Shown: positions 29,643 through 49,814, counted from the first letter of the stretch. The stretch is DNA of 64,000 nt from Minisyncoccota bacterium (GCA_041666915.1 JBAYFZ010000001.1:9086-73085), one strand, 5' to 3'. Notes: a model not told the origin generated them from the sequence alone. Translations and numbers: made by a program.

Positions 29643-29924
29643 ATTATCTTTTTCGTTGATTTTATTTTTTGATCTCCTATTGCATTCCTATTCCATATAT
29701 AGGTTGTAACAAGAAACCTCCGCGAATAATAGTACAACATTATAAAAAGTTTGCAAGGGAGTGGTAATGTGCACAAACATATGGCGGTTTTCTTCAACCA
29801 ATCGGATCTGTCAGGATGTAGGCGACATCTCGCCAAAAAATCTTCATCACTTCTTCATAACTTTTTTATTGTTTCTTTAACCTTTCTTAATCAGGATTTT
29901 AACTCGTTTTGGTATCATCTTTTT

Positions 29925-31073
29925 ATGAATGAAAAACAAATAGATGAAAATCTGAATAACAAGATCAATATTATTAAATTCCCAGTAGATCCGACTACAG
30001 CCGTAGAAGCGATAGATCAGCTTTTGACTTACGCTGTTCATCTGAACGCTTCGGATGTGCATTGTGATCCTAGAGAAAAAGGTATCTTTATTAGGTTTAG
30101 GGTTGATGGACAGATAAGTGATGTCGGTATTTTGCCAAGACGTCTGTTAGAAGAATTTATCGCTAGGCTCAAGATCCTTTCTGGAGCTCGTACAGATTTA
30201 CATATTACTCCACAAGATGGGCGTTGGAAGACTGTTATAGGTGGGTCAGATTACAATATTAGAATTTCGTTCATGCCTACATATCATGGTGAAAATGCTG
30301 TCATGCGTCTTTTGCCGACCAGAGTTGATGGAGATATTTCTTTTGCCAAGCTTGGTTTTACTCCAGACCATGTGAGGTCTATCGGTAATGCTTTGGAAAG
30401 AAAACACGGACTCATTCTTGTCACTGGCCCGACTGGTTCTGGAAAGACTACGACTCTCCATACTTGTTTATCTATGAAAGCAAGAGAACCGTTATCTATC
30501 ATTACTTTAGAAGATCCTGTTGAGTACGAGATTGCAGGTGTTCGTCAGATCCATATTCGTCATTCTCATGGAGTTAATTTCGCTACTGGTTTGCGGTCTG
30601 CTTTAAGACAAGATCCAGATGTCATAATGGTTGGCGAAATTCGTGATAGTGAAACTGCAAAAGTCGCCATTCACACTTCTCTCACAGGTCATTTGGTTCT
30701 CTCTACCTTGCATACCAATTCTGCTTTAGAAGCTATTCCACGTTTGGTTGATATGGGTGTAGACCATTATTTACTAGCTTCTACGTTGAAGTTAGTCGTA
30801 GCTCAACGTCTTGTTCGATCTATGTGCCACGAGTGCAATTCTCAAGGCTGTGAGTCGTGTCGTTATACAGGATATTCTGGCAGATCTGTCATAGCAGAAG
30901 CCTGTGAGATAGATGAAGGTATGAGTGAGCTTATTTCTGCCAAGGAGCCAGTCTCTGCTTATTTGGACTATGCCATGACAAAAGGTTTTAGACCTATCAG
31001 AGAAGATGGTTTGGAAAAGATTGAATGGGGTATTACCACCAAGGAGGAAGTTCTAAATGTCTTGCATACATAA
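29925..31073 (+). CDS. pilB: type IV pilus assembly ATPase, PilB/GspE family (short form with C-terminal tetracysteine motif)
   Basis: Walker A 'VTGPTGSGKTTTLHTCLS', 'DPDVIMVGEIRD', His box, 'CHEC...CESC'. Start set at Met 29925; the upstream ORF extension looks non-coding. Confidence 0.85.
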   Translation: MNEKQIDENLNNKINIIKFPVDPTTAVEAIDQLLTYAVHLNASDVHCDPREKGIFIRFRVDGQISDVGILPRRLLEEFIARLKILSGARTDLHITPQDGRWKTVIGGSDYNIRISFMPTYHGENAVMRLLPTRVDGDISFAKLGFTPDHVRSIGNALERKHGLILVTGPTGSGKTTTLHTCLSMKAREPLSIITLEDPVEYEIAGVRQIHIRHSHGVNFATGLRSALRQDPDVIMVGEIRDSETAKVAIHTSLTGHLVLSTLHTNSALEAIPRLVDMGVDHYLLASTLKLVVAQRLVRSMCHECNSQGCESCRYTGYSGRSVIAEACEIDEGMSELISAKEPVSAYLDYAMTKGFRPIREDGLEKIEWGITTKEEVLNVLHT

Positions 31074-43332: not shown

Positions 43333-43926
43333 ATGCCTTACATTATTGCAGGTCTAGGGAATCCAGGAGAAGAATATGAGAATACACGACATAATACAGG
43401 TCGTATGATTCTTGATTTTGTTGTAAAAGAATATGGTGATGAATTTGAATTTAATAAAAAGCTAAATTCAAAAGTTTGTCAGGCGAAAATCGGAAAAGAA
43501 AAAGCTACACTAATTGCTCCAGAAACTTTTATGAATCTTTCTGGTAAAGCTATTGCTCCACTTGTAAAAAGTGTCAAAGCGGCAGAAAAATTGATCGTTA
43601 TTTATGATGATTTTAGTTTACCTTTGGGTCGTATGAGGATTTCGTATAACAGGAGTTCTGGTGGACACAATGGCTTGGAGTCCATCATCAAAGCTGTGAA
43701 GACAGAAGCTTTTTTGCGTATTCGTATCGGTACTGCTCCAGAAAATGCAAAAGGTAATGCTAAACTCATAAACGGCGAAGATAAAATTGAAAAATTTATT
43801 CTTGGAAAATTCAAAGATGATGAATTGAAAGAATTGAAAGCTGTAGGGAAGAGAGTTACCGAAGCGGTTCTTACAATAATCAAAGAGGGAAGGGAAAAGG
43901 CTATGAGTGTTTACAATGGGATGTAA
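43333..43926 (+). CDS. pth: peptidyl-tRNA hydrolase
   Basis: 'IIAGLGNPGEEYENTRHNTG', 'GGHNGLESI'. Confidence 0.9.
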   Translation: MPYIIAGLGNPGEEYENTRHNTGRMILDFVVKEYGDEFEFNKKLNSKVCQAKIGKEKATLIAPETFMNLSGKAIAPLVKSVKAAEKLIVIYDDFSLPLGRMRISYNRSSGGHNGLESIIKAVKTEAFLRIRIGTAPENAKGNAKLINGEDKIEKFILGKFKDDELKELKAVGKRVTEAVLTIIKEGREKAMSVYNGM

Positions 43927-43984
43927 CAAAAAACAGCATTGCCTAAAAGGTATGCTGTTTTGAATTCGGCATTAACGCCTCCTA

Positions 43985-44230
43985 TTAGTCTGCCACACAA
44001 GCGTGAGCCGTGTCGCATCCTCGACTGAAAACTAATCCACAACGTGGGCATGTTTTCGGATCATCTTCCTTTTTTACAGGAATTTCCGTCTCATTACCAA
44101 GAGTGTGTTTTTGTGAATAATCGCCAAACAATCCTCCGTCTTCATCAGCCAACATCCTCGCCATAAGGATTTGGCTGTTGAAACTTTTTGACATAAGATT
44201 CCTTTCTCCAGTCCGATGAAATATTAGCAT
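43985..44230 (-). CDS. small zinc-ribbon protein (81 aa), paralog A of the pair flanking the pyr island
   Basis: C-terminus 'KTCPRCGLVFSRGCDTAHACVAD*'; homologous to ORF 48202-48447. Alternative start Met at 44194. Confidence 0.45.
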   Translation of the reverse strand: MLIFHRTGERNLMSKSFNSQILMARMLADEDGGLFGDYSQKHTLGNETEIPVKKEDDPKTCPRCGLVFSRGCDTAHACVAD

Positions 44231-44395
44231 TATCTTTGATAGTGTTCAATATTTAATTGTTGGTGTAGCTTGATTGACTACCAAATAATTTTGTTGTAGG
44301 GTCTTAAAAGAATCGATAAATCGATAAAGCCAAAAGCACGGCTCAGTGTGCTCATTTGAACATTAAAATAAATCAACAGACTGGAGAACTTTCTA

Positions 44396-45265
44396 ATGAT
44401 AACTCTTTCAAACGGTCACGCGTTCAACTATATGGTTGCAAGCGGGGCTCTCGCCTTTGATGGTAAAGGCTGGCTTTGGGAACGACCACTGGTGTGGCTC
44501 GGTCTCATTAAACCTGAACTCTTCACTGTAGTGATCAAATCTTTGACTCGTAATCCGCGTCAAGGAAATCTTCGATGGTGGAAACCTTGGGCTTGCGTTC
44601 GTCTGATCCCTGGTGGTTCGGTCAATAAAGTAGGACTTACAAATCCCGGTATTGAATGGTGGTGTAGGGAAGTTGGTCCTAATATTGATTTTCAAAAGTT
44701 TCCGACAGCCGGATCAATTTTCGGTGATGAAAGAGAACTTGTGGAAATGGCAGAGATGCTCAATCGCTTCGATCTTGTTGCGCTTGAAGTCAACGTCTCA
44801 TGTCCAAACACTGGTCATGCTATGGAAATGGTAGAAATGGTTGTGAACAGTGTGAAGGCAGTCAAACGTGTTTCGCGTCATCCCGTCATTGTCAAAGTCT
44901 CGGCTGATCAGGACTATCTCACTATTGTACGTGGACTTGTTGGAATTGTGGAAGCAGTTTCACTCAATAGCGTACCTTGGAAGACAGTTTTTACTAACGG
45001 CGAGCAAACACCTTTGTGGAAGCTCGAGAAACAAGTCGGTGGTGGAGGCGGAGGCGTCTCTGGCAAACCGGCACAGAAGTACAACTGGCCAGCAGTCGAA
45101 GCTCTTGCAAAACAAGGATCGCTCCCAGTGATCGGTCCAAGTGTCATGGAATTTGAAGATATGGAAAAACTCCGGAGACTCGGCGCGAAAGCGATCGGCT
45201 TCGGTGCAATTCATTTACGGACTCCATGGAAGCCAACAGCAATCGTCAGAAAGGAAGACTTATGA
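44396..45265 (+). CDS. pyrD: dihydroorotate dehydrogenase (class 1 PyrD-type catalytic subunit)
   Basis: 'VGLTNPG', 'LEVNVSCPNT', 'GGGGGVSGKP', 'VIGPSVME' family blocks. Confidence 0.8.
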   Translation: MITLSNGHAFNYMVASGALAFDGKGWLWERPLVWLGLIKPELFTVVIKSLTRNPRQGNLRWWKPWACVRLIPGGSVNKVGLTNPGIEWWCREVGPNIDFQKFPTAGSIFGDERELVEMAEMLNRFDLVALEVNVSCPNTGHAMEMVEMVVNSVKAVKRVSRHPVIVKVSADQDYLTIVRGLVGIVEAVSLNSVPWKTVFTNGEQTPLWKLEKQVGGGGGGVSGKPAQKYNWPAVEALAKQGSLPVIGPSVMEFEDMEKLRRLGAKAIGFGAIHLRTPWKPTAIVRKEDL

Positions 45266-46359
45266 AAGAGAACTCAGTAACAATACCTCGGTGGTTTGAT
45301 CGCCACCTCCACATCCGCGATGGTGAGATGATGAAAATGGTCCTTCCGTCTACGCTTAAACAGCGTGCAACGGGAGCGATTATCATGCCGAATCTAACAA
45401 GTCCAATCTCTACGATTGAGAAAGCGAAAGCCTATCGAAAACGTATTGATGAGGTTAGAAGTGGTTATTTTATGAATCGCATTCCATTCATTGGTAATGG
45501 TGAAAATCAATTCATGCCGTGTATGACTTGTTATCTCACGGACGATACAAGTCCAGAAGAAGTCGTACGTGGATTCAAAGATGGTGTCTGGCGAGCAGTG
45601 AAACTCTATATGGCCAATCAAAAAGGTCAAGGTGGAACTACTGGTTCAGCACATGGTGTGAGGAATCTTCTTGGTCGCTATCCAGTGTTTGAAGCAATGG
45701 AGAAATATAAAATTCCATTGCTCGGACACTTTGAAGCGGTTGAAGAAAATGTTGACGAATTTGATCGCGAGATCGTTTCCGTTGATCGTGATCTCAAGCC
45801 CATCCTCAGGTCCTTTCCAGGATTGCCGGTGGTCTTTGAACATATCACTGACGGACGTGCAGCCGAATTCGTTTCATTAGCTCCGGCACTTGGCTATGAA
45901 GAAGTATATGCCACCGTGACGGCTCATCACCTCATGATCAATCGTAATGCGATGTTTTGGGGTGGTATGAATCCCGGTCACTATTGCAAGCCTGTACCGA
46001 AGCGTGAAATACATCGGCAACGCATTCGTGAATATGTAACTTCGGGTCATCCTCGTTTTGGAGCAGGAACAGATTCCGCCCCTCATGATGAAAGCGTTAA
46101 GTCTCGTTGCTACGGTTGCGCGGCTGGCATATTCACTGCCTCATCGGCCGTCGAGCTTTATGCGACCGTCTTTGACGAAGAAAACGCACTTGAACATCTC
46201 GGTCCGTTTCTTTCTGAAAACTTCCTTGGAATTTATGGTATGGAAGTGAGTTCGGAGACGATGACGATTGAACGTACTGCTCTGATGGTTCCAAAGAAAG
46301 TTGGTTCTGTTCAGGTTTTCACAGGAGGTACGGAACTTCCTTGGAAACTCGTTGGTTAA
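45262..46359 (+). CDS. pyrC: dihydroorotase (E. coli-type, class II)
   Basis: Colinear with E. coli PyrC: 'FDRHLHIRDG', 'MPNL', 'TCYLTD', 'VFEHIT', 'YCKPVPKREIHRQ', 'GTDSAPH', 'CYGCAAGIFTA'. ATGA overlap with pyrD stop. Confidence 0.9.
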   Translation: MKENSVTIPRWFDRHLHIRDGEMMKMVLPSTLKQRATGAIIMPNLTSPISTIEKAKAYRKRIDEVRSGYFMNRIPFIGNGENQFMPCMTCYLTDDTSPEEVVRGFKDGVWRAVKLYMANQKGQGGTTGSAHGVRNLLGRYPVFEAMEKYKIPLLGHFEAVEENVDEFDREIVSVDRDLKPILRSFPGLPVVFEHITDGRAAEFVSLAPALGYEEVYATVTAHHLMINRNAMFWGGMNPGHYCKPVPKREIHRQRIREYVTSGHPRFGAGTDSAPHDESVKSRCYGCAAGIFTASSAVELYATVFDEENALEHLGPFLSENFLGIYGMEVSSETMTIERTALMVPKKVGSVQVFTGGTELPWKLVG

Positions 46360-46373
46360 GATTAAAAACAACT

Positions 46374-46411
46374 CAGCCCTGACACTTAATTGTTGTCGGG
46401 GCTGATTTTTT
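46374..46411 (+). terminator. intrinsic terminator after pyrC
   Basis: 'CAGCCCTGACActtaattgtTGTCGGGGCTGattttttg'. Confidence 0.7.
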
Positions 46412-46531
46412 GTTGTCGGCTTTACTATTTACAGATTTTAAGCTAATGTTCATTTAGAGTTAACTTAGTTGACACAGGTCAAGGCGCTACCTTAAAGCGT
46501 CAATTTTGAACATTAAAAAAAGAGAATAGTT

Positions 46532-47293
46532 ATGAAGCCAATTATGAAGCCAATCAATCCATATCCAGGAGAAAGTCTCATGGAACTTGGGAAACGTTGC
46601 GATGCAGTATATATCCGCCCAAAAGTTGGTTCTGAGCGTAAGGGACCTTTGGTTGCCTACGCAGGAAAAGATAGCAAAGGACGGAATCTCGTCGGAAATA
46701 TTTACTTCAACTTCCGGCGGATTGAATCTCATCTGAAAGTCGTCGAGATGTTTGCCGAAGTTGCCTGTCAGAAACTTCGCGATCAAAACCTGCTCGACAC
46801 GTTCGACACTGTCTGTGGAATTCCGCAAGGTGGGCGAACATTTGGTCAGGAGCTAGCACGTATTGCTGGTAAACGGTTTGTGTATGCAGACAAGAAACCG
46901 AAACCGACAGAAGCGGGTAAGAAACAGGAATATACGTGGGACCTCTCGCAGTTTGATTTCGAGAAAGGTGAACGCATCGCCATCGCGGAAGACGTTTTTA
47001 ACAACTTCCAAAATACCGATAACACCTTGGCCGAGGTCGCTGCTACTGGAGCGGAGATTGTACTCCTTGTTGGAGCACTCAATCGTTCTCCTGTTTACGA
47101 AATGTCCTACATGCCAAAAAGTGGTTTGTTCGCTGGAAAAGATCTGCCTGTTGTTGCTTCTATTCGTGAAGCGTATCCCGAATACGAACAGGATGATCCT
47201 GCGGTTGCGAACGATATCGCTGCTGGGAGACTCGAACTGGAAGTGAAGAAAAACTGGGCGCGTCTCTGCGCAGTAATGGAACAGTATTCTTAG
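46532..47293 (+). CDS. pyrE: divergent type-I phosphoribosyltransferase, probable orotate phosphoribosyltransferase
   Basis: PRTase-like core 'DTVCGIPQGG' and PRPP-loop-like 'ERIAIAEDVFNNFQNT'. Position between pyrC and pyrF. Confidence 0.55.
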   Translation: MKPIMKPINPYPGESLMELGKRCDAVYIRPKVGSERKGPLVAYAGKDSKGRNLVGNIYFNFRRIESHLKVVEMFAEVACQKLRDQNLLDTFDTVCGIPQGGRTFGQELARIAGKRFVYADKKPKPTEAGKKQEYTWDLSQFDFEKGERIAIAEDVFNNFQNTDNTLAEVAATGAEIVLLVGALNRSPVYEMSYMPKSGLFAGKDLPVVASIREAYPEYEQDDPAVANDIAAGRLELEVKKNWARLCAVMEQYS

Positions 47294-47322
47294 ACCAAAA
47301 GAAAAAAAGAAAGGAAAATAGT

Positions 47323-48072
47323 ATGCAAAAAATATTGACACCGGCGGAACGGTTGATCGTTGCTGCTGATTTCAAACCGGGACAGCCTTGGGAAAAATTC
47401 TACGGCAGAGTGGGGGTTCGATCACAGGTTCTTGCGTTAGCCAACAGTCTCAAAGGAACCGGGGTCTACCTCAAGGTAAACTCTGCTCTACGAGCTTGTG
47501 GTTACGATTTGATCAGTGAGATTCAATCATGTGGTTTGCGAGTCTTCGCTGACCTAAAGCTCTACGATATCGGTGAGACTCTGTCTACAGATGGAATCTT
47601 ATTGAAGGAAGCGAAGCCAGAATTGCTTACTACTGTCTGTTCGGCAGGAGTTCTAGCGATGCAAGCACTCAAGAAAGAATTACCTGATACGGAAGTGCTC
47701 GGTGTAACAGTTCTCACGAGTCTCAATGGGGCAGATGTGCAGAAAATCTATTCCAGCGACATTGGTGCTACAGTCTTAATGTTAGCTAAACATGCCCTGG
47801 TTGCAGGTATTGACGGTTGGATTTGTTCTCCAAAGGAAGCATCAACACTTCGGACATTAAGTGATCGTATGAGCATCAACACTCCTGGAATTCGGCCGAC
47901 ATGGGCTATCGTCCCTGGTGATGATCAGAATCCGGAACGGATTATGACTCCTGCAAAAGCCATTAAGGCTGGTGCGGATCGTATCGTCATCGGTAGACCG
48001 ATTGTTAAGGCTGAAAAACCATACGACGCGGTCATGCGGACAATTGATGAAATCGCTTCGGCTGTGACGTAG
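47323..48072 (+). CDS. pyrF: orotidine 5'-phosphate decarboxylase
   Basis: 'LIVAADF', 'VYLKVNS', 'VFADLKLYDIGET' (DxKxxDI), 'IVIGRPI'. Confidence 0.85.
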   Translation: MQKILTPAERLIVAADFKPGQPWEKFYGRVGVRSQVLALANSLKGTGVYLKVNSALRACGYDLISEIQSCGLRVFADLKLYDIGETLSTDGILLKEAKPELLTTVCSAGVLAMQALKKELPDTEVLGVTVLTSLNGADVQKIYSSDIGATVLMLAKHALVAGIDGWICSPKEASTLRTLSDRMSINTPGIRPTWAIVPGDDQNPERIMTPAKAIKAGADRIVIGRPIVKAEKPYDAVMRTIDEIASAVT

Positions 48073-48201
48073 TCAACATGGAAAGTTCTTATCAACAATT
48101 AGCTCGCTCACTTCGGTGGCGGGCTAATTTTTTATATAAATTTTTAAATAAAAAAAGAGCGCCACCTTATGATGACGCCGTTTTGAGTAATGTGAAGCAT
48201 A

Positions 48202-48447
48202 TCAGTCTGCTTGGCAAATATGTTCCATCATCAATTCTCGTGGCACTTTCTTGCCACACACATCACATGTTACAGATGAGCAATCTTCTTCTGGAACCGT
48301 GCTGGGCATTAGGAGACATTGCGAAGGAAAAGGATCTTCGAGAAATCTCACGTCTCCTGCAATTGGTCTGCCTATTCTGACTGCGGATGTACAACTCTCT
48401 AGAACTGTTGGCATAGGAACCTTTCTGCTAAAGATTTTCACCACCAT
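48202..48447 (-). CDS. small zinc-ribbon protein (81 aa), paralog B
   Basis: C-terminus 'VTCDVCGKKVPRELMMEHICQAD*' parallels paralog A ('EED..TC..CG...H.C.AD'). Preferred over the overlapping plus-strand ORF 48078-48380. Confidence 0.45.
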   Translation of the reverse strand: MVVKIFSRKVPMPTVLESCTSAVRIGRPIAGDVRFLEDPFPSQCLLMPSTVPEEDCSSVTCDVCGKKVPRELMMEHICQAD

Positions 48448-48524
48448 TTAAAAAATACCATATTTTTAAAATATTAACAATCAAAAAACCCTTCGACAAG
48501 CTCAGGGTTTTTTGAGAGTGATAA

Positions 48525-49814
48525 TTATTTCTTTTCTCCTGAATAAGCTAATGCCATCTTTTGTTCCTTAGGATCAAACAAGGTTATCTTGAAGTCATAA
48601 GTCTTACCCAATTCTAGAGATTTCTTGAGTTTTTCTTCAGAACCAAATTCTGAGACATGGACTAGACCGGCGACACCTTCTTCTATAGAAGCTAATGCAC
48701 CATGTTTGTTGAATTTGATAATAACTCCAGAGACAGACATATCTTTCTTGTATTTCTTTGCAGCTTCGGTCCAAGGGTTGGTCTTCAATTGTTTGAGTGA
48801 TAGGGAAATCTTGCCATCCTTGATCTCAATAATCTTGGCTTTGACTTTCTGGCCAACCTTTACAAAGTTGCGTGGATCATCAACAAGTCCCCAATCAATC
48901 TCGGAAATATGAATGAGTCCTTCCAAACCTTCTTCAAGTTTGACGAATACTCCGAAATCAACGATACCTGTGATAGTACCTTCAACATCGTCACCGATCT
49001 CATACTTACTGACGATTTTCTCTTTTTCTTTTGATTCAGAACCTTTCTCTGAGAAGATGAGCTTACCTTCTTTTGGATCAGCAGTGATGATAGCGACTTG
49101 CAAGCGTGTGCCAATGAGTTTCTTGAGCTCATCTAGAATCTTGTCCTTGTCACCATCAGAAATGCGAGGGTAATGATCGGTCTTGAGCTGTGAAGCTGGT
49201 AGGAAACCGAGGATGCCTTGCCATTCAATGAGAAGTCCACCTTTGTTGGCTTCTTTGACTGGAAGGTCAAGAACTTTCTTTTCTCTGATAGCAATCTCTG
49301 CTTCATTCCAAATGAGAGCTTGGCGAGCTTCCTTGAGAGAAAGTTCGTAATAGCCTTCTTTGTGAGCTGTATCAACGATCTTTGCGGCGATAACATCACC
49401 AACGTTTATTTTTTTGATAACGTCACGAGCAATGATAAATTCACGACCGTATATGATACCGGTTCCGAATGGTGCTAGATCTACGTAGACTGAAGATTTT
49501 TCAACTGCGATAACAGAACCTTCCACCAAATCACCGATGATTGGAGGGTTTTTCATTGTCTCGGACAATTTGCCCATGACACTGGACTTCTGTTCCTCGG
49601 TCAATTCCATATCACCCTTATTCTTTTTTACCTCACCAACTTCTTTTTTGTCTGTTGATGTAGAGTTTTTGGCTGACTTTTTTGGAGATGCAACCTTGGT
49701 CTCTTTTGTTGCCTCTTCGGTTTTTGCTGTTACTACTGTCTTTGTTTCTGGATCCACTACGGTCTCTGACTTGTCTTTATGACCAGTCAAAGTCTCTTTT
49801 AATTTTTTGAACAT
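48525..49814 (-). CDS. rpsA: 30S ribosomal protein S1 (four S1 domains, K/T/E-rich N-terminal extension)
   Basis: Repeated S1 OB-fold blocks ('GDLVEGSVIAV', 'GDVIAAKIVD', 'GTRLQVAIIT', 'GDDVEGTITGIVDFGVFVKL', 'GVIIKFNKHGALASI'). Confidence 0.85.
   Translation of the reverse strand: MFKKLKETLTGHKDKSETVVDPETKTVVTAKTEEATKETKVASPKKSAKNSTSTDKKEVGEVKKNKGDMELTEEQKSSVMGKLSETMKNPPIIGDLVEGSVIAVEKSSVYVDLAPFGTGIIYGREFIIARDVIKKINVGDVIAAKIVDTAHKEGYYELSLKEARQALIWNEAEIAIREKKVLDLPVKEANKGGLLIEWQGILGFLPASQLKTDHYPRISDGDKDKILDELKKLIGTRLQVAIITADPKEGKLIFSEKGSESKEKEKIVSKYEIGDDVEGTITGIVDFGVFVKLEEGLEGLIHISEIDWGLVDDPRNFVKVGQKVKAKIIEIKDGKISLSLKQLKTNPWTEAAKKYKKDMSVSGVIIKFNKHGALASIEEGVAGLVHVSEFGSEEKLKKSLELGKTYDFKITLFDPKEQKMALAYSGEKK

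Follow-up and report, generated by a model that had tools for sequence, protein, structure and literature searches.

The pyr island of this Minisyncoccota bacterium is best explained as two self-contained expression modules which are part of a pool of pyr cassettes laterally shared among Paceibacteria-type CPR bacteria; as a whole, this reading is given a probability of about 0.7. The first module would be made of a promoter, a structured leader, pyrD, pyrC and a terminator, and the second of a promoter, a structured leader, an OPRT-like phosphoribosyltransferase (PRTase) gene, pyrF and a terminator. Where the CPR host itself has about 50-55% GC, the pyr genes match the genome around them, and in AT-rich hosts they form sharply bounded GC-rich islands, the present copy probably being a partly ameliorated member of the pool, located in a neighborhood that holds pyr genes in relatives. 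All positions refer to the window, i.e. the entire stretch of 64,000 nucleotides that was analyzed (Table 1).

Layout and composition of the island

The preliminary description had placed the island between pth and rpsA, with pyrD-like, pyrC, PRTase and pyrF genes in one direction, an ATGA overlap and a strong terminator 3' of pyrC. All of this is borne out: the four genes follow each other in this order on the + strand, the ATG of pyrC starts at 45262 and the TGA of pyrD ends at 45265, and the fold of the terminator was equalled in stability by 0/200 shuffles. The promoter-like sites, which may function as such, were read from the sequence. A counterpart box, TTTAC(T/A)-17-TA(A/G)(G/T)GT, precedes the leaders of other loci at equal distance, and the box of the PRTase-pyrF unit is kept upstream of the PRTase leaders in L004, L012, L013 and L021. 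The site of the pyrD-pyrC unit was not listed by a consensus promoter scan.

The two orphan ORFs zfA and zfB, paralogs with 28% identity, are positioned immediately outside the left and right ends of the cassette homology, respectively. The former, annotated by NCBI as hypothetical protein WCS89_00265, displays a C-terminal C-x2-C-x11-H-x-C followed by AD; the latter gives a weak zf_UBZ match (18 bits, cut-off 25.6) and has its own terminator at 48179-48158 on the - strand. No zfA homolog other than the two copies of the window was retrieved among 5.8 billion proteins, and zfA is absent from the related pyr loci. Neither integrase, mobility genes, tRNA gene nor flanking or terminal repeats were detected at the island, and a phage carrier for the cassette was looked for without success.

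Table 1. Features of the pyr island and its borders (window coordinates)
Feature	Position	Strand	Remarks
pth	43333-43926		left neighbor of island
zfA, orphan 81-aa ORF	43985..44230	-	ORF list; gene call on ENA contig
Promoter-like site, pyrD-pyrC unit	44274..44302	+	TTGACT, 17-nt spacer, TAGGGT
pyrD leader RNA	44303..44370	+	covariance-model match, 74.8 bits, E 1.3e-17
pyrD leader hairpin P0	44312-44316 with 44321-44325	+	
pyrD leader pseudoknot stem S1	44328-44331 with 44340-44343	+	
pyrD leader stem S2	44335-44339 with 44348-44352	+	
pyrD leader conserved GAACAUUAAAA	44358-44368	+	
pyrD-like gene, divergent class-1 dihydroorotate dehydrogenase, 289 aa	44396..45265	+	Pfam DHO_dh
pyrC, class II (homodimeric type) dihydroorotase, 365 aa	45262..46359	+	TIGR00856
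Intrinsic terminator after pyrC	46373..46411	+	-23.4 kcal/mol, z -6.14, then UUUUUU
Promoter-like site, PRTase-pyrF unit	46421..46449	+	TTTACT, 17-nt spacer, TAATGT
PRTase leader RNA	46450..46520	+	covariance-model match, 54.3 bits, E 8.6e-12
PRTase leader P0	46459-46463 with 46469-46473	+	
PRTase leader S1	46476-46479 with 46489-46492	+	
PRTase leader S2	46483-46487 with 46497-46501	+	
PRTase leader GAACAUUAAAA	46508-46518	+	
Type-A PRTase, 253 aa	46532..47293	+	weak family matches, AF2 fold, operon slot
pyrF, OMP decarboxylase, 249 aa	47323..48072	+	Pfam OMPdecase, TIGR01740
Intrinsic terminator after pyrF	48099..48133	+	-24.1 kcal/mol, z -6.41, then U-run
zfB, orphan 81-aa ORF, zfA paralog	48202..48447	-	ORF list; gene call
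rpsA	48525-49814		right neighbor of island

The higher GC content and shifted codon usage noticed by eye at about 43.9-48.5 kb hold upon computation. Composition is not uniform in sliding windows: GC amounts to 0.450 in 43930-48450 versus 0.385 in the remainder, and the cassette proper (44309-48145) reaches 45.8% versus 38.4% outside, the highest value attained by any 3837-nt window and 4.1 sd above the non-overlapping ones. The GC3 of the four pyr genes (0.38-0.445) lies above that of the background genes (0.314 +/- 0.049), each pyr gene exceeding 46 to 50 of the 50. Their synonymous codon usage is strongly deviant (chi-square 516, 41 degrees of freedom), the deviation per codon being 0.447, whereas randomly drawn sets of background genes give 0.054 +/- 0.024 (maximum 0.238).

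Encoded enzymes and pathway

The pyrD product is a class-1 dihydroorotate dehydrogenase (DHOD) at the level of family and fold, and would presumably act as one. It scores 65.4 bits against Pfam DHO_dh (cut-off 27) and stays far under every NCBIfam cut-off (85 bits, equivalog cut-offs of 269 or more). The best 50 PDB matches to its AF2 model (pLDDT 96.4) are all DHODs, headed by the PyrD subunit of L. lactis DHOD-B (TM 0.76, 24% identity). The start MITLSNGH is kept in all relatives; the catalytic NVSCPN and the residues aligned to the conserved Lys/Asn positions of DHOD are kept across 67 members of a small family (158 clusters at E <= 1e-30 among 1.84 billion representatives). No PyrK partner was found near the gene. 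PyrC exceeds the curated cut-off of the class II model TIGR00856 (pyrC_dimer; 300.6 bits, cut-off 292.95), its best solved relatives being those of Burkholderia (4lfy), Yersinia (6cty) and E. coli (1j79). PyrF matches Pfam OMPdecase with 110.5 bits and TIGR01740 with 108.3 (cut-off 92.3), and the motifs DLKLYD (D-x-K-x-x-D) and GRPI are seen in its sequence.

Together with the PRTase, these proteins would catalyze the final four reactions of the de novo pathway, from carbamoyl-aspartate through dihydroorotate, orotate and OMP to UMP. The absence of pyrB and carAB from the window was verified by TBLASTN, which retrieved no PyrB, PyrI, CarA or CarB homolog in the 64 kb, and pyrB/carAB are likewise absent from 25/26 related loci. 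The pyr genes might accordingly serve to process carbamoyl-aspartate, dihydroorotate or orotate imported from a host, or to degrade orotate in reverse, as could also be suggested by the described dependence of CPR bacteria on hosts for nucleotides (PMC11665869) and by the glutamine synthetase and ammonium transporter genes following pyrD-pyrC in Kaiserbacteria CP064968. Such a role is considered unlikely: pyrB adjoins pyrC in the exceptional locus L020, the PRTase and pyrF end of the operon is meaningful only towards UMP, a near-complete de novo pathway was reported in a Parcubacterium (PMC5220378), and absence from 64 kb says little when the largest contig of the genome measures 450 kb. The same report also argues against an acquisition special to this genome.

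Leader RNA and type-A phosphoribosyltransferase

The two leaders are built alike: downstream of a promoter-like site, each comprises a hairpin followed by an H-type pseudoknot and by a near-invariant GAACAUUGAAA. An exact TGAACATTAAAA is found only twice in the whole window. The stems differ between the two leaders in a compensatory manner, AGGT/ACCT versus AGCC/GGCT in S1 and GGCGC/GCGTC versus AGCAC/GTGCT in S2. RNAalifold applied to an unbiased MAFFT alignment recovers S2 with at least three of the five predicted pairs compensatory, a fourth arising artefactually from the way the pyrD-type rows are aligned. Covariation was counted on a curated alignment of 26 sequences and 14 base pairs, in which 94.2% of the cells pair (slid controls, 21-33%) and 12 of the 14 pairs display changes on both sides with pairing kept (61 cells), values reached in 0/500 shuffles. 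Searched against 749 kb, the covariance model yields 29 matches at E < 1e-7; each of them immediately precedes pyr genes, and the 15 non-CPR loci contain none. No family of Rfam 15 matches the leader even at E <= 10; it is a new RNA element, covarying and exclusively associated with pyr genes. In five loci the GAACAUUGAAA motif occurs without the pseudoknot. As regards an expression platform, neither a terminator nor an obvious SD-sequestering pairing was recognized. Both modules are probably controlled through this conserved 5'-UTR element (hairpin, pseudoknot and motif), which would respond to a metabolite of the pyrimidine pathway or to a protein.

The PRTase had been called divergent, and its family matches are weak (Pribosyltran 18 bits, cut-off 26.3; pyrE_Therm 30, cut-off 150). 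The protein, termed type A, is started by NCBI at M5 (249 aa) and has 308 homologs, of which the best 120 share 72-82% identity and, when named, belong to Patescibacteria. It carries a remodeled PRPP loop, EDVFNNFQNTDNT, and the canonical TTG phosphate loop is missing. The folds nearest to its AF2 model (pLDDT 74) are OPRTases, then APRTs. Relative to E. coli OPRT, YFNF replaces YFFN, and a lysine-rich loop and the acidic pair E-D are kept. Three kinds of protein occupy the slot across loci, namely type A, the canonical type B and a PyrF-PyrE fusion, and the slot and leader of type A are those of canonical OPRT genes in other CPR loci. Type A is viewed as a CPR-specific, OPRT-like protein which would function as an OPRT.

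PyrR, a PRTase homolog, is encoded in pyr operons. Type A could therefore be a PyrR-like regulator, i.e. an RNA binder of PRTase fold recognizing the conserved leader, and the lost TTG loop, the failure of the OPRT models and the presence of a leader in front of the type-A gene itself all point that way. We regard this as improbable. Type A and canonical OPRT exclude each other in a single operon slot, the leader is also found in loci whose only OPRT is canonical or a PyrF-PyrE fusion, the motifs retained and the nearest folds are those of OPRTs, and the Rfam PyrR-site model gave no match.

Distribution and origin of the cassette

The closest relatives of all four pyr proteins are Patescibacteria (60-92% identity). 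Among the best 120 PyrC homologs (66-79% identity), all named organisms belong to this group, as Kaiserbacteria, Paceibacterota or Staskawiczbacteria. A scan of species-representative genomes with PyrC revealed a gap between CPR matches (60-79%) and non-CPR matches (at most 47%), the best of the latter originating from Alphaproteobacteria, cyanobacteria and Pseudomonadales. About 25 CPR loci contain the pyrD-pyrC pair, and many of these have no other pyr genes. The pyr genes are at least 0.04 richer in GC than their flanks in 20/26 CPR loci, by up to +0.20, and in 0/26 do they fall below them by more than 0.002. In the GC-rich Kaiserbacteria host L008 both match (0.547 versus 0.541), and elsewhere the edges are sharp, as in L005, where GC passes from 0.33 to 0.55 and back to 0.37.

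The pyrD-pyrC segment (2.0-2.1 kb) is 90.6-90.9% identical at the DNA level among L005, L007 and L008, and 86-90% identical between these and L010 (about 89% for L008), while the flanks of the four loci have GC contents of 0.35, 0.375, 0.54 and 0.33, respectively, and nothing beyond the segment aligns. Divergence of the hosts was judged from flank GC, from their status as separate species-representative genomes and from a few flank genes that they share. Genes common to other locus pairs outside the cassette are few and mostly share 40-66% protein identity, with the exceptions of L020-L031 (up to 91%) and of the syntenic L001-L012. The GC excess of the 20 loci, combined with about 90% DNA identity across hosts of 33-54% GC, indicates that the cassette is exchanged within the CPR.

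L012 is a syntenic relative of the window, with all four pyr genes in the hisS-lepB/pth-rpsA neighborhood and the island on the other side of pth. The flanking genes of the two share 60-80% protein identity and a synonymous third-position identity of about 0.50, versus 0.60-0.65 for pyrD, pyrC and PRTase. The L012 island is nearer to those of L013, L007 and L008 (84-87.5% DNA identity) than to that of the window (75.5%). In L049, a distant relative whose hisS is 40% identical, the pyr genes lie in the same neighborhood. Long residence with allelic replacement fits this shared neighborhood as well as fresh insertion does. The window copy, with a GC3 of 0.41, stands between its host (0.31) and fresh copies (about 0.6), and fully ameliorated copies exist in L020 (0.28) and L024 (0.31).

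Horizontal origin is the best explanation of the compositional anomaly, and this part of the earlier claim stands. Since GC-rich copies of the island are present in many CPR genomes, its origin probably lies with CPR relatives and not with E. coli-like bacteria as had been implied. The PyrC gap, the number of CPR loci and the syntenic L012 argue for transfer within the CPR, and the same evidence against an acquisition special to this genome. We infer the direction and timing: transfer would be recurrent across CPR bacteria and, the copy being partly ameliorated, not recent here. Uptake might proceed through natural transformation and recombination; natural competence is documented in Patescibacteria, natural plasmids are not known (PMC11665869), and a PilB-type ATPase gene is present in the window.

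A different account dispenses with transfer and supposes vertical inheritance, with a gene-specific force (for instance selection acting on the mRNA or on codon usage, or else repair biased towards GC) holding the GC of the pyr genes high and their evolution slow in AT-rich CPR bacteria. The neighborhood common to the window, L012 and L049, the recurrence of the GC excess in so many lineages and the strong protein conservation (up to 92% identity for PyrD) could be understood in this manner. It nevertheless appears doubtful, as the cassette is about 90% DNA-identical across hosts 20 GC points apart and at unrelated genomic positions, and the pyr gene set is modular and variable. The copies with GC3 of 0.28-0.31 show that high GC is not required, and the highly expressed rpoB, rpoC, rpsA and gyrA of the window are devoid of such bias.

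The notion that a gammaproteobacterial, E. coli-like bacterium had recently donated the island was suggested by the class II type of PyrC, by the GC of the island and by the description of PyrC as strikingly E. coli-like. PyrC is colinear with the E. coli protein over its full length and the quoted blocks all align (HLH, KLY, H-x-E, FEHIT and GTDSAPH are aligned), but identity is limited to 42%, which appears ordinary for class II dihydroorotases, and the closest relatives of PyrC and PyrD are Patescibacteria rather than proteobacteria. Such a donor, already contradicted by the CPR relatives of all four proteins, is very improbable: CPR homologs of PyrC reach 79%, within the related loci, PyrD, PRTase and PyrF likewise have their closest relatives in CPR bacteria, the families of PyrD and PRTase are CPR-dominated and far from the canonical proteobacterial enzymes, and at the DNA level the cassette shares 75-81% identity with CPR cassettes. 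A chimeric assembly or contaminating fragment, conceivable for a metagenome assembly with an abrupt composition change, is hardly credible given that the junctions are independently assembled in the ENA, Logan and NCBI records of the organism, that the pattern is repeated in more than 20 independent MAGs, chromosome-level assemblies among them, and that flanking synteny with L012 is continuous.

Comparison with known systems

As in horizontally acquired islands, the pyr cassette displays a sharp GC and codon discontinuity and identical-type DNA in unrelated hosts at unrelated sites, and its copies form a series from unameliorated to fully ameliorated. Unlike typical islands, it lacks an integrase, a tRNA target and direct repeats, what it carries is a biosynthetic operon of housekeeping type, supplied with a promoter, leader and terminator of its own, and the same neighborhood is reused in relatives.

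The metal and substrate residues of class II dihydroorotases (HxH, carboxylated Lys, His, His, Asp) are aligned in the island PyrC, which differs from the E. coli protein by five additional residues (NQKGQ) in the flexible loop and by its membership in a CPR-only clade of 60-79% identity. With class 1 DHODs (the L. lactis DHOD-B PyrD subunit and the fumarate-dependent class 1A), the island PyrD shares the FMN TIM-barrel fold (TM 0.72-0.77), the catalytic Cys in N-x-S-C-P-N and the Lys and Asn aligned to conserved FMN- and substrate-binding positions; identity is only 19-24%, a WWKPWAC insertion is present and G-P-S-V replaces G-M-G-G-V. Type A has the type I PRTase fold in common with OPRT (PyrE; TIGR01367/TIGR00336), its nearest structures, and resembles the OPRTs of other CPR genomes in its position between pyrC and pyrF and in its leader. 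With solved OPRTs it shares 15-19% identity. It scores below all family cut-offs, reads E-D-V-F-N-N-F-Q-N-T-D-N-T in the PRPP loop instead of D-D-V-x-T-(T/A)-G-x-T and has named homologs in Patescibacteria only.

Like the H-type pseudoknot riboswitches (preQ1-I/II, SAM-II, guanidine-III), the leader is a short 5'-UTR element with two interleaved, covarying helices, an A-rich loop 1 and a strict association with a single pathway. Compared with these and with known pyr leaders (the PyrR attenuator RF00515 and the pyrG leader), it possesses an additional 5' hairpin and, as a feature of its own, a near-invariant single-stranded tandem, UUGAA-CA-UUGAA, which persists where the pseudoknot is missing.

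Composition and layout of the pyr island

The preliminary description had proposed that pyrD, pyrC, a phosphoribosyltransferase (PRTase) gene and pyrF form an island of higher GC content, and this observation was confirmed by computation. The interval from 43930 to 48450 displays 45.0% GC, compared with 38.5% in the remaining window. The segment homologous to other genomes reaches 45.8%, a value 4.1 standard deviations above non-overlapping windows and the maximum among all windows of equal length. The GC3 of the four pyr genes ranges from 0.38 to 0.445, against 0.314 +/- 0.049 for 50 background genes, and the suspected shift in codon usage amounts to a synonymous deviation about eight times that of random sets of background genes. 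The proposed order of the genes holds, pyrD and pyrC do overlap by ATGA, a strong terminator does follow pyrC, and folding revealed a second terminator 3' of pyrF. Both terminators have bulge-interrupted stems; they were overlooked by a consensus scan and confirmed by folding. The four genes are indeed located between pth and rpsA, among ordinary CPR housekeeping genes (rpoB, rpoC, dnaG, ftsZ, ftsA, hisS, lepB, pth, rpsA and gyrA), and a tblastn search of the 64 kb returned no homolog of PyrB, PyrI, CarA or CarB, as had been claimed for pyrB and carAB. Atypical composition combined with sharp boundaries was found in the window and in related loci.

A second compositional outlier of the window is an ORF of 395 aa (GC 0.475, GC3 0.43) located about 250 nt from the tRNA-Leu and tRNA-Lys genes. 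It contains no Pfam domain at E <=1e-5 and may be another acquired gene. Further downstream, a single ORF joins an N-terminal NusB domain to a C-terminal NUDIX hydrolase domain. The coordinates of all features are collected in the table.

Coordinates of the features described in the window and in the loci compared with it (L numbers)
Locus	Position	Strand	Feature
Window	29751-31073	+	PilB/T2SSE-type ATPase
Window	43985-44230	-	81-aa ORF bracketing the cassette
Window	44303-44370		leader upstream of pyrD
Window	44309-48145	+	pyr island, segment homologous to other genomes
Window	46450-46520		leader upstream of the PRTase gene
Window	46532-46555		tandem 12-nt duplication opening the PRTase gene
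Window	48202-48447	-	81-aa ORF bracketing the cassette
Window	near 56.1 kb		weak T4SS-pilin-like gene
Window	60212-61399	-	395-aa ORF
Window	61652-61734		tRNA-Leu
Window	61865-61939		tRNA-Lys
Window	62488-63411	+	NusB-NUDIX ORF
L003	11335-14218		pyrD-pyrC, glutamine synthetase, ammonium transporter
L005	7939		pyrD leader with GAACAUUGAAA only
L006	6037-7471		leader and PyrF-PyrE fusion
L007	11000-18500		GC-rich region 3' of the pyrD-pyrC island
L010	~9102		pyrD leader with GAACAUUGAAA only
L015	550		pyrD leader with GAACAUUGAAA only
L018	~9057		pyrD leader with GAACAUUGAAA only
L020	11364-12164		carbamoyltransferase gene 3' of pyrC
L021	150		pyrD leader with GAACAUUGAAA only

Distribution and origin of the cassette

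Comparable islands recur elsewhere in the CPR: in 20 of the 26 CPR loci the GC content of the pyr genes is 4 to 20 points above that of the flanks, and in none does it fall under the flank GC by more than 0.002. The steps are sharp, the GC content passing from 0.33 to 0.55 and then to 0.37 in L005, and from 0.30 to 0.53 and then to 0.34 in L010; in GC-rich hosts (for example Kaiserbacteria GW2011_GWA2_52_12 and L049) the pyr genes match their surroundings. A pyrD-pyrC segment of 2.0-2.1 kb, spanning from about 40-170 nt 5' of the start to about 60 nt past the stop, shares 90.6-90.9% DNA identity among L005, L007 and L008 and 86-90% with L010. The flanks of L005, L007, L008 and L010 have GC contents of 0.35, 0.375, 0.54 and 0.33, respectively, and these loci show no alignment outside the segment. 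The same DNA is therefore present in compositionally unlike hosts (0.33-0.54 GC), as judged from DNA comparison of the loci themselves. The few other genes common to loci outside the cassette mostly display 40-66% protein identity, the exceptions being the L020-L031 pair and the syntenic L001-L012 pair. The GC3 of the pyr copies runs from about 0.6-0.7 down to 0.28-0.31 (L020 and L024), a spectrum expected from amelioration, in which the copy of the window is intermediate (0.41); this copy forms a long branch in both trees. In L007, the GC content stays at 0.42-0.50 for a further 7.5 kb 3' of the pyrD-pyrC island, against about 0.30 for the host, which suggests that a larger composite region was acquired there.

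The best 120 PyrC homologs are 66-79% identical to the protein of the window and every named one belongs to the CPR. With one genome per species, CPR matches show 60-79% identity and the next tier, composed of Alphaproteobacteria, cyanobacteria and Pseudomonadales, does not exceed 47%; a recent proteobacterial donor is excluded by this gap. CPR-type copies also occur on a few short contigs assigned to Lentisphaerae, Peregrinibacteria or Gammaproteobacteria, probably through mistakes in binning or labelling. The pyrD-pyrC pair is conserved in about 25 CPR loci, with PyrD proteins up to 92% identical to that of the window. The horizontal acquisition initially suggested is supported by composition and by shared DNA, but as an exchange within the CPR that is not recent in the genome of the window.

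The locus L012 (identical to L047) is syntenic with the window over the whole locus and carries the four pyr genes between lepB and pth, on the other side of pth from their place in the window (pth-rpsA). The flanking proteins of the two loci are 60-80% identical with a synonymous third-position identity near 0.50, this value being 0.60-0.65 for pyrD, pyrC and the PRTase gene. The island of L012 is nearer to those of L013, L007 and L008 (84-87.5% DNA identity) than to that of the window (75.5%). The far more distant L049 (HisS 40%, LepB 44% identical) contains leader-pyrE-pyrF between lepB and pth. Since the same neighbourhood holds pyr genes in the window, L012 and L049, these genes are long-standing residents of the hisS-lepB/pth-rpsA neighbourhood, apparently with replacement or re-insertion of the copies once the lineages had diverged.

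Signs of mobility were sought around the island. The neighbourhood contains no flanking repeat family and no integrase domain, there is no tRNA target at the island (the sole tRNAs of the window are located at 61.6-61.9 kb) and a search of IMG/VR yielded no phage with the cassette or the leader. Flanking repeats were rejected as insertion scars, being short and at chance level apart from the 17-nt TTTGAACATTAAAA, which is part of the leader. Two 81-aa ORFs in the same orientation, both called as genes, bracket the cassette just outside the homology and share a C-terminal C-x2-C-x11-H-x-C-x-A-D; their GC content (0.43-0.45) is above background. They were discarded as a mobility clue, being weak paralogs (28% identity, about 45% DNA similarity) with no homolog besides themselves in 5.8 billion proteins, and Campbell-type integration through them is speculative. 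Natural transformation followed by recombination would be a plausible route of entry for the cassette, as Patescibacteria are documented to be naturally competent and are not known to carry plasmids (PMC11665869). The PilB/T2SSE-type ATPase and the weak pilin-like gene of the window fit a DNA-uptake or pilus apparatus, which could mediate the proposed gene exchange.

The cassette is modular. The pyrD-pyrC unit often stands alone, and the downstream slot is occupied by pyrF and a CPR-specific OPRT-like PRTase (type A) in the window, L004, L012, L013 and L021, by a canonical OPRT with a TTGG loop in L005, L023, L049 and L051, and by a PyrF-PyrE fusion in L006. This bacterial fusion of 451 aa follows a copy of the leader and consists of an N-terminal OMP decarboxylase and a C-terminal canonical OPRT, resembling a UMP synthase with the domain order PyrF-PyrE. 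A tblastn search with the E. coli proteins found no pyrB or carAB in the window and related loci save in L020, the only locus compared with a pyrB 3' of pyrC. The gene there encodes an aspartate/ornithine carbamoyltransferase 41% identical to E. coli PyrB and directly follows pyrC; the pyr genes of L020 are fully ameliorated (GC3 0.28). In L003 (Kaiserbacteria CP064968.1), genes for glutamine synthetase and an ammonium transporter take the place of PRTase and pyrF 3' of pyrD-pyrC, an order that may be coincidental or may indicate a link to nitrogen handling.

Enzymes encoded by the cassette

The true start of PyrC is M13 of the long ORF, giving a 365-aa form. The resemblance to the E. coli enzyme pointed out in the preliminary description holds for colinearity, class and motifs: PyrC passes the TIGR00856 class II cut-off (300.6 vs 292.95 bits, profile positions 2-340 of 341), and HLH, (V/A)KLY, the H of HGE/HFE, FEHIT and GTDSAPH are all matched in the alignment. 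The binuclear-zinc-binding and catalytic roles of the aligned residues (HxH, carboxylated Lys, His, His and Asp) are presumed to be those of the E. coli structure 1j79. The identity is just 42%, however, and the label means class II only; the closest solved structure is a Burkholderia enzyme.

The pyrD product is, as judged from its domain, active-site residues and modelled fold, a predicted dihydroorotate dehydrogenase (DHOD). It scores 65.4 bits with Pfam DHO_dh (cut-off 27), and its FMN TIM-barrel model (pLDDT 96.4) finds DHODs as all 50 of its 50 best PDB matches. The class-1 catalytic cysteine C136 (N-x-S-C-P-N) is invariant in 67 family members, and K48, N58, N77, N83, N133, N138, K167 and N191, the Lys and Asn residues that match FMN- and substrate-binding positions of known DHODs (alignment to 1ep1), reach 90% conservation or more among them. 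Its scores lie far under all curated NCBIfam equivalog thresholds (PRK07259 85.4 vs 269, NF041011 72.5 vs 330, TIGR01037 69.6 vs 270 bits), and it constitutes a distinct DHOD subfamily. The family is small, with 158 clusters at E <=1e-30 among 1.84 billion representatives; one of ten distant clusters bears a name, Nealsonbacteria.

The type-A PRTase also remains under the family cut-offs (pyrE_Therm 30.2 vs 150, pyrE 19.2 vs 106.8, Pribosyltran 18 vs 26.3 bits). Its PRPP loop, remodelled to EDVFNNFQNTDNT, reads AEDVFNNFQNTDNT in place of the canonical D-D-x-x-T-(T/A)-G-x-T. The model has a type I PRTase fold whose nearest folds are OPRTases (Foldseek top matches 4ohc, 4paw and 2aee, with a probability of 1.0 and a TM of merely about 0.5). 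The 308 detectable homologs form a tight cluster in which the named ones are Patescibacteria, and the gene adjoins pyrF in the window, L004, L012, L021, L054 and L056. Type A and canonical OPRT swap in one operon slot under one leader; mainly because of this interchangeability, the type-A PRTase is predicted to be the orotate phosphoribosyltransferase of the CPR pyr pathway. The gene of the window opens with a tandem 12-nt duplication, ATGAAGCCAATT ATGAAGCCAATC, encoding MKPI-MKPI; homologs carry a single MKPI and the NCBI start call corresponds to the second ATG. PyrF is a regular OMP decarboxylase displaying DLKLYD (the D-x-K-x-x-D active-site motif) and GRPI; it scores 110.5 bits with OMPdecase and 108.3 vs 92.3 with TIGR01740, and is under the PRK00230 cut-off (156 vs 193).

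A structured leader upstream of the pyr operons

Alignment of the upstream regions revealed a conserved 5' leader, whose tail is the 17-nt repeat preceding pyrD and the PRTase gene. A sigma-70-like promoter is followed by AGAG, a 5-bp hairpin P0 and an H-type pseudoknot composed of S1 (4 bp, AGCC/GGCT), loop 1 (AAA), S2 (5 bp, AGCAC/GUGCU) and loop 3 (about 4 nt). After 4-10 nt comes the near-invariant GAACAUUGAAA, a tandem UUGAA-CA-UUGAA, and then the ribosome-binding site. The stems of the two copies of the window differ by compensatory changes. S2 was recovered by RNAalifold on an unbiased MAFFT alignment with at least 3 of the 5 predicted pairs compensatory, a fourth such pair being an alignment artefact in the pyrD-type rows. 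MAFFT misplaces the 3' strand of S1 between pyrD-type and PRTase-type leaders, and fixed-register segments were therefore taken by hand for pair counts. In 26 distinct leaders, 94.2% of the cells pair and 12 of the 14 pairs change on both sides (61 cells), counts that hand registration biases toward the structure. None of 500 shuffles was as good, and slid partners gave 21-33% pairing.

A covariance model built from the MAFFT alignment yielded 29 matches in 749 kb (E <1e-7), including some outside the training set (L020, L017, L014 and second copies in L048, L023 and L006). All 29 immediately precede pyrD, pyrC, type-A PRTase, canonical OPRT or the PyrF-PyrE fusion; no match occurred in 15 non-CPR loci and the window contains no further copy. 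The leader combines a 5'-UTR structure showing compensatory changes with an association to the genes of one pathway. With Rfam 15, no family reached its gathering score in the window and neither leader was matched at E <=10 beyond noise, the PyrR site RF00515 included.

Such a leader could act as a pathway-metabolite riboswitch or be recognised by a regulatory protein. No terminator or SD-sequestering hairpin is evident as an expression platform, and inspection by eye of GAACAUUGAAA against the SD, the start of the coding region and the P0 loop showed no consistent pairing. Five pyrD leaders lack hairpin and pseudoknot but retain GAACAUUGAAA, which there follows the -10 box immediately; the function of the motif, or selection on it, thus seems not to depend on the pseudoknot, and the motif may be the core element to which the pseudoknot was added as a sensor. 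A further reading is that of a new class of metabolite riboswitch, responding for example to UMP, UTP, orotate or PRPP, which would travel with CPR cassettes exchanged by transformation and provide otherwise auxotrophic ultra-small cells with a plug-in, self-regulated UMP pathway. It is a tentative proposal, with a probability of about 0.3.

Significance and comparison with known systems

In the usual description, CPR/Patescibacteria cannot synthesize nucleotides. A large CPR group nevertheless carries genes for the final four steps leading to UMP, and these pyr genes behave like a common module passed laterally between genomes, which shows up as a GC-rich island where the host is AT-rich. Since standard annotation models overlook the lineage-specific DHOD and OPRT-like PRTase, pathway surveys will undercount these two enzymes. 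We know of no validated pyrimidine-nucleotide riboswitch, and the pseudoknotted leader represents a compact, directly testable candidate regulatory RNA. Gene regulation in CPR/Patescibacteria is almost unexplored, and there is a demand for native inducible elements in genetic work (PMC11665869). Pyrimidine synthesis genes of Parcubacteria have already been published (PMC5220378). No description of the pyr cassette or of the leader was found in the literature library searched; to our knowledge, the recurrence of GC-rich, self-contained pyr cassettes, the DHOD and OPRT-like families specific to the lineage and the pseudoknotted pyr leader are new.

The DHOD can also be compared with the known classes. 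The class 1B enzyme is a PyrD-PyrK heterotetramer, and the cassette of the window differs in having no adjacent pyrK. The annotated neighbourhoods contain no gene for this FAD/[2Fe-2S] subunit adjoining pyrD, and a motif search for CGxGxC(G/A)xC returned no ORF in the window or in the fetched loci. The DHOD of the window may work alone, by a class-1A-like mechanism.
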